Part shown: piece after piece, positions 1 through 4,111 of the stretch
How the letters are laid out: each line of letters starts with the position of its first letter
Position numbering within the stretch: position 1 is the first letter of the stretch
IMG/VR virus record: IMGVR_UViG_2778261572_000015
DNA from: a virus
Taxonomy: Duplodnaviria; Heunggongvirae; Uroviricota; Caudoviricetes
Length of the DNA stretch: 4,111 nucleotides
Strand: one strand, 5' to 3'
The notes under the pieces: generated by a model
Seen by the model: only the letters and a program-made list of their open reading frames with translations
Database searches by the model: none
Told to the model about the DNA's origin: nothing
Position numbers and translations under genes: made by a program

Positions 1-1011
1 TTATAACGTCACTCCGCCTTTTAGAGGATTCAGCGCGACGGCATTTTGCAGGTAGTCAGGCGCAAGGTGCGCATAGGCCATCGTCTGCTGAATGCTCGCA
101 TGTCCCAGAATCTGTTGCAGTGCGATTATATTGCCCCCATTCATCATGAAATGGCTTGCGAATGTATGCCGCAGGATGTGGGTTGCCTGATTGGGTGGTA
201 TATCTGGCTTCACTCTGCGTAAAATCCCGCAAAACTTCTCATAATCAACTTTGAATAATTTAGCGCTGGCCTCCTCTTTAACTTTTTTCTCCAGTTCCTC
301 AGAAATCGGCACGGTTCGCTTTTTACCGTTTTTGGTTTTCAGGAAGGTAACCCTGCAATTTGTAATCTGTGCTGGTTTTAGCGTGGCAACTTCCGTCCAT
401 CTTCCTCCAGTGCTCAGACATAAAAGTGCGACAAGTAAGTCATCACCATCCAAAACATTTAACAGTTTTTCGATTTCTGCTTTTTCCAGGAACGTCATTT
501 CAGGGTTGGCCTCCGCCAGTGGCGGCAGTCCGTGAATTGGGTGTTGCCCGGAAAATTCATCCAATTGAATTAATTTTGTGAACATGCCGGATAATCGGTA
601 CATGTCACGGTTTATCGTTGCGGCACTGATACCATCACGTAGTCGCATGGAACGATAATCCATCAAAGCTCTTTTGCTCATCCGGCTCACTGGTATATCA
701 CCTATGCCGCTGATGGTTTTGAGCAGATGATTAAACTCTTTTGTTCCATGCTCGTGGTTTTGCCCGTGATATTTCCACCAGATGTTCAGCAACTCACTCA
801 AAGTTCTGCGATCTGCTCGCTGACCTGCCCATTCTTTCTGGCTGGCGTAGGCGATTGTGTATCGCTCAAATGCTACAGCCTCAGCTTTTCTTTCAAATTT
901 CCTGCGGATGCGTTTTCCGTCGCGACCGCGAGGTCTAATGTCCACTTCATAGCGTCCATCATCGAGCTTCTTAATTGACATAAGAAAGCCCTCTGACGCT
1001 GTATTCACCAT
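1..1011 (-). CDS. int: Tyrosine-type site-specific integrase (P2 Int-like). Longest ORF is 336 aa from the ATG at 1011; an alternative in-frame ATG at 981 (MSIKKLDDG..., 326 aa) has a much better Shine-Dalgarno (GAGGG 8 nt upstream).
   Basis: Translation carries the tyrosine recombinase catalytic signature: conserved Arg in LSTGGRWTEV, then HILRHTFASHF and LGHASIQQTMAYAHL (H-x-x-R-H ... Y). Size about 330 aa and position next to a small repressor match P2-type integrases. The window starts exactly at its stop codon (TAA, complement of 1..3). Confidence 0.93.
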   Translation of the reverse strand: MVNTASEGFLMSIKKLDDGRYEVDIRPRGRDGKRIRRKFERKAEAVAFERYTIAYASQKEWAGQRADRRTLSELLNIWWKYHGQNHEHGTKEFNHLLKTISGIGDIPVSRMSKRALMDYRSMRLRDGISAATINRDMYRLSGMFTKLIQLDEFSGQHPIHGLPPLAEANPEMTFLEKAEIEKLLNVLDGDDLLVALLCLSTGGRWTEVATLKPAQITNCRVTFLKTKNGKKRTVPISEELEKKVKEEASAKLFKVDYEKFCGILRRVKPDIPPNQATHILRHTFASHFMMNGGNIIALQQILGHASIQQTMAYAHLAPDYLQNAVALNPLKGGVTL

Positions 1012-1050
1012 CTTGGTAACAAATGGTGAAAATGTAATGTTTATAGAGTG

Positions 1051-1344
1051 TTAACCAGTCTGTTTTTCGGAGTGGTCTGATTCTGTTGGTTTTTGCCCAA
1101 TGTGTGCGAGAGCCGGCGCGATCTGACCAGCTTGTGGTGACGTATCACCAGTCATTAACCAGAGCGTATATTTTTTAAATAAAGGCGTATTTGTGACTCG
1201 CATAACGATGCTGAGACCAGGGTCTTTATGCCCACTTTCGTAATTTTTGACTGTTCCTAGAGCTATCCCGCTAATTTCGCTGAATTTCGCCTGTGTTAAG
1301 CCTTCTGCTTTCCTAATCGCTTTCAGTTTTTCGAATGTCTGCAT
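1051..1344 (-). CDS. C: Phage immunity repressor, P2 C-type (97 aa, small HTH repressor)
   Basis: 97-aa ORF immediately upstream of and co-oriented with int. The N-terminal part has an HTH-like segment (LTQAKFSEISGIALGTVKNYESG). The C-terminal motif KYTLWLMTG...GQIAPALAH matches what I recall of P2-family C repressors. It faces a rightward early promoter, as expected for a switch. Confidence 0.78.
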   Translation of the reverse strand: MQTFEKLKAIRKAEGLTQAKFSEISGIALGTVKNYESGHKDPGLSIVMRVTNTPLFKKYTLWLMTGDTSPQAGQIAPALAHIGQKPTESDHSEKQTG

Positions 1345-1373
1345 TTGACAGTAACCTATTGGTGACTTATATT
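1345..1373 (+). promoter_or_regulatory. Candidate early promoter (Pe-like), sigma70 type: -35 TTGACA (1345-1350), 17-bp spacer, -10 TATATT (1368-1373)
   Basis: Read directly from the sequence: exact consensus -35 hexamer, optimal 17-bp spacer, 4/6 match at -10. It is oriented toward the cox-like operon and begins at the nucleotide after the repressor start codon, so the repressor mRNA must originate further right and read across it (face-to-face arrangement). Confidence 0.55.
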
Positions 1374-1400
1374 CCCGTTAAAAGGTTGTGTATTGGTGAC
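1357..1400. repeat. Two perfect 10-bp direct repeats TATTGGTGAC (1357-1366 and 1391-1400), candidate repressor operator half-sites flanking the -10 element
   Basis: Exact 10/10 direct repeat, centre-to-centre 34 bp. One copy lies in the promoter spacer abutting the -10 hexamer, the other 18 bp downstream of it. P2-type repressors are known to bind direct (not inverted) repeats flanking the -10 of Pe. Confidence 0.45.
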
Positions 1401-1496
1401 CTTTTGAGTGTGTTAGCCAGTCCCTAGAAAGGACAGGTGCGACCTAGAAGGGACTGGATCTAATAAGGGTAACACGAAAGCAAAAAGGGCTAATCA

Positions 1497-1769
1497 ATGG
1501 AAGTCAATGACTATGTGATTCAGTACCCGATTGATGCGGTACATACGGTTAAGTTTGCAGAGTTACTTGGTAAGCCAGAAACGGCTGTAGTCAAGATGGT
1601 AAAAGAGAATAAGTTGCCAGTTATTGAGCTTCGTGATCCAAGTAAGCCGAACGCTCGTGTCGGTGAGAAGTGGGTTTTCATTCCAGAGTTTAATCGCGCT
1701 GTACGAGAGGCGTTTTATAACCGACCAGTTGAACAGCGTGATGCATGGCTTTTGTGGATGGGGTTGTGA
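1497..1769 (+). CDS. cox: Cox-like protein (excisionase / directionality factor and repressor of the lysogenic promoter), 90 aa
   Basis: First gene of the rightward operon, divergent from the repressor. Size (90 aa) and motifs KLPVIELRDP...GEKWVFIPEFN...RP.EQRDAWLLWMGL fit my recollection of P2 Cox. Good RBS (AAGGG, 7 nt upstream of ATG 1497). Confidence 0.68.
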   Translation: MEVNDYVIQYPIDAVHTVKFAELLGKPETAVVKMVKENKLPVIELRDPSKPNARVGEKWVFIPEFNRAVREAFYNRPVEQRDAWLLWMGL

Positions 1770-1771
1770 TT

Positions 1772-1942
1772 ATGAGTGAACCGCGTTGTATTGCTCAGTT
1801 ACTGCGTAACGAAAGCCCCAGGGCGATTGACTTCACCATCACCCACGGTAAGGGGCGTAAGGGAATCATTATCCGCACCAAAAAACAGAGTCCGTTAAAA
1901 AAGGCTCTGACCTTTCTGAAAAGCCGGAGGGTATGGAAATGA
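1772..1942 (+). CDS. Small, highly basic hypothetical protein (56 aa from ATG 1772; the ORF track's longer form starts at 1745 inside cox)
   Basis: ATG at 1772 lies 2 nt after the cox stop (TGA 1767-1769), with a G-rich stretch upstream. The product has about 15 Lys/Arg and 3 acidic residues. It sits where P2 carries a small ORF between cox and B. Function unknown. Confidence 0.5.
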   Translation: MSEPRCIAQLLRNESPRAIDFTITHGKGRKGIIIRTKKQSPLKKALTFLKSRRVWK

Positions 1943-2439
1943 CAGTGATGACGCTCAATCTCGTTGAAAAACAGCCAGCAACTATGCGCCGGATAATTGG
2001 TAAGCATCTGGCCGTCCCTCGCTGGCAGGAGACATGCGATTATTATAATCAGATGATGGAACGTGAACGGCTAACGGTTTGCTTCCATGCGCAGTTAAAA
2101 CAGCGTCACGCAACGATGCGTTTTGAAGAAATGAACGACGTCGAACGTGAACGACTGGTATGTGCAATTGATGAATTGCGTGGGGCATTCTCAAAACGCC
2201 GTCAGGTTGGTGCAAGTGAGTATGCATATATTAGTTTTTTAACAGTCAGTCAGCGTCGCACTTTATTTATGCACGCACGACTGACAGAAAAAGAATTTAA
2301 CCAGCCATACTGGCGAATTAATGAAGAATCATGTTACTGGCGTGATGCTTTATTCCGTGCATTACGTGAATTATTCAGTCTGTTTGAGTATGCACCGACA
2401 ATTCTGACGTCGGTAAAACCAGAGCAATATCTGCATTAA
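1939..2439 (+). CDS. B: gpB-like early replication protein (P2 B is needed for lagging-strand synthesis / DnaB helicase recruitment), 166 aa
   Basis: Assigned by synteny and size only: P2 B is 166 aa as I recall it. The preferred start is ATG 1939 (GGAGG at 1926-1930, 8-nt spacing), which overlaps the upstream stop as ATGA (1939-1942). The ATG at 1933 offered by the ORF track has only a 2-nt spacer. Confidence 0.5.
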   Translation: MTVMTLNLVEKQPATMRRIIGKHLAVPRWQETCDYYNQMMERERLTVCFHAQLKQRHATMRFEEMNDVERERLVCAIDELRGAFSKRRQVGASEYAYISFLTVSQRRTLFMHARLTEKEFNQPYWRINEESCYWRDALFRALRELFSLFEYAPTILTSVKPEQYLH

Positions 2440-2502
2440 GTAATTAACCAGAGTTTTTAACGCACTTAATTGTGCGGGGCTTCTTTTTGCCTGGAGAAAG
2501 TC

Positions 2503-2727
2503 ATGCATACAGTTTCTGAAAATCAGTGCGGTATATACGCATTACTGCTGCAACAGGCCAGAACCGAAGCACAGGCCGACGCTGCGACGCGCTTTTCTTC
2601 TCATCTTGACGCCATGATTCGCCACATCACAAAGGCGGAGTTATCCCGCGTGGAGATAGTCGAGCTGCTCAGTCAGGAGTCGGAAAAATTTCACAATATC
2701 GGATTGTCTCGTGGGGAGGTGCTTTGA
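2503..2727 (+). CDS. Hypothetical small early protein (74 aa from ATG 2503; the ORF track's start at 2470 is a TTG)
   Basis: GGAG at 2493-2496, 6 nt upstream of ATG 2503. Its stop (TGA 2725-2727) overlaps the next start. No motif I recognise. Confidence 0.5.
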
Positions 2728-3029
2728 TGTCCTGTTCTCATTCAGTTGTATTACTGAATAACGCCTTAAAAATCGCCGTTATGGAAAATGGCGATTTGTC
2801 TCTTATTCAACTTGGTCTTGATAAAGAAAAGCGCGACATAACTGAATCTGTTATCGCGATTTATCAGAGCGAATTAAACCTCCTGTCTGATGTGATCAAT
2901 TTACTTGTGAAACGCGCTGTATTTCACAAGCAAATTTCCTCAGTGGATGAACTGACAAAATTAACGACAGAACTCGCCAGCTATTGCGCTGATGAATTTA
3001 AGAAACTGAACGACAAAAGGAACTGGTAA
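2727..3029 (+). CDS. Hypothetical protein, 100 aa, AT-rich coding sequence
   Basis: Start ATG 2727 overlaps the upstream stop (TGATG). GGGAGG at 2714-2719 gives a strong RBS. Its stop (TAA 3027-3029) overlaps the next start. Local GC is about 38-40 percent from my hand count, clearly lower than the flanking genes. Confidence 0.55.
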   Translation: MSCSHSVVLLNNALKIAVMENGDLSLIQLGLDKEKRDITESVIAIYQSELNLLSDVINLLVKRAVFHKQISSVDELTKLTTELASYCADEFKKLNDKRNW

Positions 3030-3253
3030 TGCCGGACAACGTAGATTTCATTCAGGAACAACAGGCTGAATTACTGGAGCGCCAGATTAACGCGGCAAGG
3101 GTAAAACATTGCGGTGCTTCTGCGCTGGTTTGCGAAGAGTGTGACGCGCCAATACCTGCTGCCCGTCGTGCGGCTTATCCGTCAGCCACGCGTTGTGTTT
3201 CCTGTCAGTCAGTCTTTGAAGCAAAAAACAAACATTACCGGAGAACGGCATGA
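3029..3253 (+). CDS. TraR/DksA-family C4 zinc-finger protein (74 aa)
   Basis: C-terminal CEECDAPIPAARRAAYPSATRCVSCQ...KHY carries two CxxC pairs with the PIP-x-x-RR spacing typical of TraR / lambda Orf73-type RNA polymerase secondary-channel binders. Start ATG 3029 overlaps the upstream stop (TAATG). Confidence 0.8.
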   Translation: MPDNVDFIQEQQAELLERQINAARVKHCGASALVCEECDAPIPAARRAAYPSATRCVSCQSVFEAKNKHYRRTA

Positions 3254-3525
3254 GTATTCGTATTGAAATTGGCGAACGTTATGTCGTTACCAGTGACAGC
3301 TTCCAGTTTATTCTCCACGAGAAAAAGAGAGCGGAAAGCGGTAAAAACGCCGGTCAGGAATGGCTGGCGGTGGTTGGTTATTACCCGAAATTAAGCCAGC
3401 TCGTTTCCGGCCTGATGCATCACGATATTCTGACCGGAAGCGCAAAGTCTTTTGCTGATTTAAACGCGCAGGTTGAGCAACTCAGCAAGCGTTGTTCAGA
3501 GGCTTTTGGCTCATATGGCCGTTAA
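3250..3525 (+). CDS. Hypothetical small early protein (91 aa)
   Basis: ATG 3250 overlaps the upstream stop as ATGA (3250-3253). GGAGA lies 5 nt upstream. Its stop (TAA 3523-3525) overlaps the start of the next ORF. No recognisable motif. Confidence 0.5.
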   Translation: MSIRIEIGERYVVTSDSFQFILHEKKRAESGKNAGQEWLAVVGYYPKLSQLVSGLMHHDILTGSAKSFADLNAQVEQLSKRCSEAFGSYGR

Positions 3526-4111
3526 AGCCTCCGGGCGTTTTGTCCCTCCGTCAGCATTTGCTGCAGGCACCGGTAAGGCGTTTACCGGTGCTTATGCATG
3601 GAACGCGCCACGCGAGGCTGTCGAGCGCGAAAGACCCCTTACACGTGACGAGATGCGTCAGGTGCAAGGTGTTTTATCCACGATTAACCGCCTGCCTTAC
3701 TTTTTGCGCTCGCTGTTTACTTCACGCTATGACTACATCCGGCGCAATAAAAGCCCGGTGCACGGGTTTTATTTCCTCACATCCACTTTTCAGCGTCGTT
3801 TATGGCCGCGCATTGAGCGTGTGAATCAGCGCCATGAAATGAACACCGACGCGTCGTTGCTGTTTCTGGCAGAGCGCGACCAGTATGCGCGCCTGCCGGG
3901 GATGAATGACAAGGAGCTGAAAAAGTTTGCCGCCCGAATCTCATCGCAGCTTTTCATGATGTATGAGGAACTCTGCGATGCCTGGGTGGATGCGCATGGC
4001 GAAAAAGAATCGCTGTTTACGGATGAGGCGCAGGCACATCTGTATGGTCATGTTGCTGGCGCTGCACTGAGAGATCCCCTCATAATTTCCCCAAAGCGTA
4101 ACCATGTGTGA
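3515..4111 (+). CDS. A: N-terminal portion of a gpA-like replication initiation protein; the frame closes with TGA at 4109-4111 after about 198 codons (212 in the ORF track, which starts at a TTG at 3473)
   Basis: Last gene of the coupled early operon, at the position of gene A in P2-type genomes. The ATG at 3515 (MAVKASGRFVPP...) is the likely start. P2-family A proteins are roughly 700 aa or more as I recall, so this product is either truncated or a different protein. Identity rests on synteny and recollection of the N-terminal sequence. Confidence 0.45.
   Translation: MAVKASGRFVPPSAFAAGTGKAFTGAYAWNAPREAVERERPLTRDEMRQVQGVLSTINRLPYFLRSLFTSRYDYIRRNKSPVHGFYFLTSTFQRRLWPRIERVNQRHEMNTDASLLFLAERDQYARLPGMNDKELKKFAARISSQLFMMYEELCDAWVDAHGEKESLFTDEAQAHLYGHVAGAALRDPLIISPKRNHV

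Follow-up and report, generated by a model that had tools for sequence, protein, structure and literature searches.

The early promoter and bipartite C operator of a P2-like prophage match the published switch of coliphage WΦ

At the family level, a P2-like C/Cox switch comprises a helix-turn-helix C repressor of ~100 aa, a Cox partner, face-to-face promoters and direct-repeat operators, and the locus described here has all of these. The switch of coliphage WΦ was mapped by experiment between 1999 and 2007, and the primary mapping paper is that of Liu and Haggård-Ljungquist (1999, J Virol 73:9816). Two later studies, both published by the Haggård-Ljungquist laboratory in 2007, describe the operators concerned (PMC1904268, PMC1904263). 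WΦ C binds two 10-bp direct repeats that lie 34 bp apart, centre to centre, and flank the −10 hexamer of the early promoter Pe (PMC1904263, PMC1904268). P2 C binds two 8-bp direct repeats that are 22 bp apart, and the two repeats bound by P2 Hy dis C, also of 8 bp, are 26 bp apart and flank the −35 hexamer (PMC1904268). WΦ C and P2 C are heteroimmune (PMC1904268). P2 Hy dis belongs with WΦ to the family of ~100-aa C repressors acting on two direct repeats, but its C is, according to the published description, 44% identical to WΦ C.

The WΦ operator has been dissected in particular detail. WΦ C forms a strong dimer, with no higher oligomers off DNA, and bends its operator by ~60 degrees, the centre of the bend lying between the half-sites O1 and O2 (PMC1904263). 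Changing O1 from TATTGGTGAC to CGCCAACAGT abolishes repression in vivo, and point mutation of both half-sites derepresses Pe fully (PMC1904263). A single half-site is bound in vitro by WΦ C, but not by P2 C, a further difference between the two switches (PMC1904263). When 6 or 10 nt are deleted between the Pe start and O2, repression in vivo remains intact and the gel-shift complexes are altered (PMC1904263). Neither of the two repressors represses a hybrid P2/WΦ operator (PMC1904263); therefore, immunity specificity lies in the half-site sequence together with the cognate C.

Phage 186 is likewise P2-like, and the lytic and lysogenic promoters of its CI/Apl switch converge. Its repressor, however, is a 196-aa two-domain CI that acts as a large oligomer on inverted repeats and distal sites, and its establishment promoter depends on CII. 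The repressor of our locus has 97 aa, a single helix-turn-helix and direct repeats as its sites, and, as judged from its sequence, none of the features of 186 CI applies to it.

The window, by which we mean the whole stretch of 4111 bases analyzed here, is colinear with WΦ (AY135739) from position 1 to 4067, with 98.5% identity and no gaps. The gene order, int, C, cox, orf78, B, orf80-83 and A, is the same in both. The int gene (1..981, minus strand) encodes a 326-aa tyrosine integrase that is 99.4% identical to WΦ Int and carries the Pfam domains Int_N and Phage_integrase. Its start follows the WΦ record, which begins at the equivalent of 981; a mechanical ORF list runs on to an ATG at 1011, adding 982-1011 and giving 336 aa. 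The C gene (1051..1344, minus strand, start codon at 1342-1344) encodes a 97-aa helix-turn-helix repressor (Pfam HTH_3, E = 2e-8), which is identical to WΦ C in all 97 residues and about 43-44% identical to P2 C.

Beyond a spacer of 152 nt lies cox (1497..1769, plus strand), at the position equivalent to that in WΦ. The 90-aa product is identical to WΦ Cox in 90/90 residues, matches Pfam Phage_Cox (E = 9e-24) and is 40% identical to P2 Cox. Given these matches, we assign cox as the first gene of the early operon, with a product that would be both the repressor of the lysogenic promoter Pc and the excision factor. Further rightward come small early genes and then the first part of a large replication gene.

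Beyond 4067, the window no longer matches WΦ gene A or E. coli prophages. The final 44-45 bases (4067-4111, CTGAGAGATCCCCTCATAATTTCCCCAAAGCGTAACCATGTGTGA) are 100% identical to the end of an IS4-family ISVsa5/IS10-type element, which is found on more than 1100 plasmids. Homology breaks off where this IS10-type end begins, and therefore the replication initiator gene A is interrupted ~550 nt into its 2286 nt. The prophage is probably replication-defective through this interruption. The switch may thus sit in a defective prophage, without any change to what the element is.

We searched 1000-1800 with a promoter scan and obtained a single plus-strand site, Pe, with the −35 hexamer TTGACA (1345-1350) and the −10 hexamer TATATT (1368-1373). 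The hexamers are separated by a 17-nt spacer, and 11 of their 12 positions match. Because C starts on the minus strand with the ATG at 1344-1342, the −35 hexamer begins at the base adjoining C. The 10-mer TATTGGTGAC occurs in exactly two copies in the 4111-base window, on the same strand and 34 nt apart from start to start. The left copy (O1, 1357-1366, plus strand) has the O1 sequence named in PMC1904263, and the right copy (O2, 1391-1400, plus strand) is an exact repeat of it; the −10 hexamer sits between the two.

A first-pass annotation, made from the letters, had set the promoter right against the C start codon with the two exact 10-bp copies bracketing its −10 at 34 bp, and had read the arrangement as a P2-type Pe with direct-repeat C operators. 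The promoter scan and the ORF coordinates place the hexamers as it claimed, the two copies were confirmed, and the reading is supported by the identity with WΦ given below and by the published WΦ operator. The WΦ record AJ245959 carries a promoter feature for Pe that corresponds to 1343-1379 (plus strand) of the window and encloses the −35 hexamer. Carried over from WΦ, the Pe start site would be at about 1379/1380, which puts O2 at about +12 to +21. When the whole window was shuffled by mononucleotides, 7.9% of the shuffles had a sigma-70 match of at least 11/12, and an exact direct repeat of at least 10 nt within 60 nt arose in 118 of 20000 shuffles (~0.6%) of the 152-nt C-cox spacer. A chance origin of the Pe match and the TATTGGTGAC repeat is unlikely. 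No Rfam family reached its gathering score anywhere in the window.

To place the locus among described phages, we compared 1000-1800 with the phage collection by megablast and found 99.5% identity to WΦ (AJ245959, AY135739) and about twenty other P2-like phages. Over 1300-1520 (221 nt), the window and WΦ differ at two bases only, 1379 and 1438, and no hexamer or half-site is hit. Base 1379, which coincides with or adjoins the Pe start, is T in the window and C in WΦ; base 1438, between the putative Cox repeats, is T in the window and G in WΦ. The T at 1379 is absent from all six other aligned sequences, and the T at 1438 is also carried by E. coli ECCNB12-2. The T at 1379 may have an effect, though in the published work repression was unaffected when bases between the Pe start and O2 were deleted.

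The pEE938 oligonucleotide TTGACAGTAACCTATTGGTGACTTATATTCCCGTCAAAAGGTTGTGTATTGGTGAC, which served to build the wild-type WΦ Pe promoter/operator (PMC1904263), is the same as 1345-1400 of the window apart from base 1379. It includes the −35 hexamer and has O2 as its last element. Therefore, the coordinates of the observation are exactly those of a published reagent. Both promoter features annotated in WΦ are conserved in the window, base 1379 alone differing. The two switches agree fully in C, Cox, the −35 and −10 hexamers, both half-sites and their 34-nt spacing, and the stretch annotated as Pc, whereas the changes at 1379 and 1438 and the IS10-type element interrupting gene A set the window apart from WΦ.

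Judged from this identity, the prophage is almost certainly P2-like and of the WΦ immunity class, with 1345-1400 as its Pe and two-part C operator (O1, O2); we found nothing at odds with this assignment. The features that characterize this class are found here: a C of WΦ type (97/97 residues), two 10-bp TATTGGTGAC repeats at 34 bp flanking the Pe −10, and convergent Pe and Pc with Cox as the first early gene, the starts being carried over from WΦ. The first-pass annotation had suggested alignment with P2 and WΦ, which proved the right comparison, and its outcome was the WΦ operator. The switch element is therefore one that is already known.

With P2, the locus has in common a small helix-turn-helix C read leftward, convergent Pe and Pc, direct repeats flanking the Pe −10 and a −35 hexamer adjoining the C start. 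The mechanism, with dimers on direct repeats and DNA bending, is also shared. However, the marks of the P2 immunity class, namely 8-bp repeats of GTTTAGAT at 22 bp and a P2-type C, are not those of our locus. In the P2 record, O1 and O2 (GTTTAGAT) are annotated 22 nt apart; the first-pass annotation had given this value, correctly according to the record and PMC1904268. P2 differs further in having a Pc with a perfect TATAAT, a transcript overlap of ~35 nt (82 nt in WΦ) and a Cox that uses TTAAA(G/C)NC(A/C) boxes.

The lysogenic promoter required a different approach. The first-pass annotation had seen no convincing minus-strand promoter for C and had left its position open. Our scan of 1000-1800 likewise gave no canonical minus-strand sigma-70 site, but the position is fixed by the WΦ record, in which the Pc promoter (1875-1911 of AJ245959) has identical sequence to 1461-1497 (minus strand) of the window. 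Pc, which drives C, abuts the cox start codon. This lysogenic promoter escaped both the earlier reading and the consensus scan because it is weak, with a non-canonical −10.

We derived the start sites of Pe and Pc from the GenBank features and the distances quoted in PMC1904263. In WΦ, the transcripts from Pe and from Pc have 82 nt of overlap, and O2 is 60 nt from the Pc start (PMC1904263). As O2 ends at 1400, the 60-nt distance leads to a Pc start at ~1460/1461. A Pe start at ~1380 and a Pc start at ~1461 fit the published 82-nt overlap, and the starts taken from the published distances agree with the ends of both GenBank promoter features.

The block TGnTAnnCT-N5-GATCCAG, in the Pc sense, is kept in four heteroimmune phages, WΦ, SI7, ENT4 and FSL SP-004, among which the C operators and the remaining spacer sequence differ. 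In the window, it reads TGtTACCCT (1474-1466) and GATCCAG (1460-1454) on the minus strand. This conservation suggests that Pc is a weak extended −10 promoter with TACCCT as the −10 and a start that borders the conserved GATC. A candidate −35, TTGATT (1497-1492), is 20 nt from the −10, too far for a canonical promoter. We speculated that Pc in this clade may be an extended −10 promoter that starts on a conserved Dam site, GATC (1457-1460), in which case lysogenic transcription might sense methylation or replication; we regard this proposal as improbable. Alternatively, the conserved block may merely be part of a contact surface for Cox or RNA polymerase. We could not trace the block to the published WΦ accounts.

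WΦ Cox recognizes a 12-nucleotide direct repeat in the Pe-Pc region, not the P2 cox-boxes (PMC5009727). By repeat search, we found on the plus strand, a short way downstream of the Pc start, a direct repeat with copies 20 nt apart, CCTAGAAAGGACAGG (1423-1437) and CCTAGAAGGGACTGG (1443-1457). It is nested in a perfect 9-nt inverted repeat (CCAGTCCCT at 1417-1425 and AGGGACTGG at 1449-1457). The C-cox spacer has no other repeat of this kind besides O1/O2. It is probably the 12-nt repeat read by WΦ Cox, and we annotate it as a probable Cox operator.

To examine natural variation, we searched 5426 complete E. coli genomes for the switch region 1335-1505. It is present at 97.7% identity or more in 260 of them (~5%), always on the chromosome and in one copy per genome. 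We then chose six of the more divergent copies for alignment with the window. O1 reads CATTGGTGAC in one strain, and O2 reads AATTGGTGAC in Yersinia phage YpM_22. Across the six WΦ-class copies, only the first base of the half-site varies, and neither the 9-nt core ATTGGTGAC nor the 34-nt spacing changes; substitutions also occur between O1 and O2.

More distant relatives retain this arrangement but carry other half-sites, at similar spacings. The C of Enterobacter phage ENT4 and that of SI7 are each 73% identical to the C of the window; their half-sites are AATTAGTGAC / AATTTGTGAC at 35 nt and TTAGTGAC / TTTGTGAC at 32 nt, respectively. Salmonella phage FSL SP-004 (C 56% identical) has CCTATATAGG twice at 34 nt, SEN5 (57%) has TCTACCAT twice at 33 nt, and phiT5282H (60%) has ATCTCTACCAT twice, also at 33 nt. 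Spacings of 32-35 nt are thus found in several immunity classes; therefore, a distance of about three helical turns is common in the family and no peculiarity of the window. In 11W, P88, YpM_117 and ST16-OXA48phi5.4, whose C proteins are 43-52% identical, no exact direct repeat of at least 8 nt was found near Pe save a likely Cox-region repeat, in a scan that imperfect repeats would escape.

Two of these relatives show some symmetry in their operators. Each CCTATATAGG copy in FSL SP-004 is a perfect palindrome, whereas the repeats described for P2 and WΦ are non-palindromic. In ENT4, an inverted half-site core (TTCGTGAC, opposite strand) abuts O2, giving GTCACGAATTTGTGAC and a partly palindromic O2 region.

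We considered whether the TATTGGTGAC 10-mers might be a chance repeat, or might bind Cox, Int or IHF instead of C. Such a repeat does arise in the 152-nt spacer in the small fraction of shuffles given above, and Cox and Int of P2-like phages also read direct repeats. However, published mutagenesis and gel shifts tie these exact sequences to C, WΦ Cox is reported on a different, 12-nt repeat (PMC5009727), and the Int arm-site consensus tgTGGaCa is unrelated. Moreover, the half-site core is invariant in natural variants and tracks the divergence of C in relatives. This explanation is therefore very improbable, and C remains the protein to which we assign the half-sites.

The first-pass annotation had also taken the 34-bp spacing to imply a different repressor geometry and possibly a distinct immunity specificity. 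The immunity class does differ from that of P2, but the geometry had already been published for WΦ. That the spacing marks a new geometry or specificity, apart from all characterized P2-family switches, gains some appeal from the other spacings in P2 (22 bp) and in P2 Hy dis (26 bp). Against it, C has 100% identity with its WΦ counterpart, the half-sites and their spacing are exactly as published for WΦ, and several other immunity classes also have spacings of 32-35 nt. Nor does the spacing serve as the source of specificity, as the WΦ spacing can be cut by 6 or 10 nt with repression in vivo unimpaired. We consider a new geometry or specificity scarcely credible, and retain the assignment to the WΦ class.

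Finally, the 10-mer TATTTGTGAC (1188-1197) lies on the same strand inside the C gene, 169 nt from O1, and has one mismatch to TATTGGTGAC; it could be a distal C site that loops to O1/O2 in a tripartite operator. The mismatched position is one at which the half-sites of ENT4 and SI7 vary as well, and phage flanking DNA alters the WΦ gel-shift pattern and lowers Pe activity ~100-fold (PMC1904263). Conservation of TATTTGTGAC within the class is uninformative because the site encodes V-T-N of C. A tripartite operator nevertheless has next to no likelihood: ~0.24 near-copies are expected by chance in the window by our arithmetic, no third half-site copy is present in SI7, ENT4 or FSL SP-004 (C plus ~600 nt on each side), and the authors of the WΦ study judged secondary sites very unlikely because one half-site with phage flanks gives a single shifted band (PMC1904263). 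We rejected TATTTGTGAC as a third half-site; it is probably chance or coding sequence, and relatives are without an equivalent.

Taken together, the bipartite operator would work as follows, identity and conservation being taken from sequence, and binding, bending, the mutational requirement and the start sites from the published WΦ experiments. In a lysogen, the 97-aa C would be expressed from Pc (about 1461-1497), which is weak and reads leftward. C, a dimer in solution, would bind the TATTGGTGAC half-sites on either side of the Pe −10 and bend the DNA by ~60 degrees, and this binding would block rightward transcription of cox and the replication genes. The crystal-structure paper on P2 C models one symmetric dimer per half-site, in which the repeat is read by one of the two recognition helices and the contacts of the second are less specific. 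By analogy, one C dimer would most likely occupy each half-site here. Both half-sites would be required for repression in vivo, despite the in vitro occupancy of single sites by WΦ C. Pe and Pc would face each other with transcripts that overlap by ~82 nt, and an active Pe would interfere with Pc. Cox would repress Pc, presumably through the 12-nt direct repeats at about 1423-1457.

As a discovery, the locus carries little weight, since its operator has already been dissected experimentally and is textbook-level material. The comparative results add modest detail on how a symmetric helix-turn-helix dimer reads direct repeats. For annotation, the analysis assigns the prophage to the WΦ immunity class and fixes the coordinates of Pe, O1, O2 and Pc in the window. 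The prophage is predicted to be immune to superinfection by phages of the WΦ class, but not by P2.
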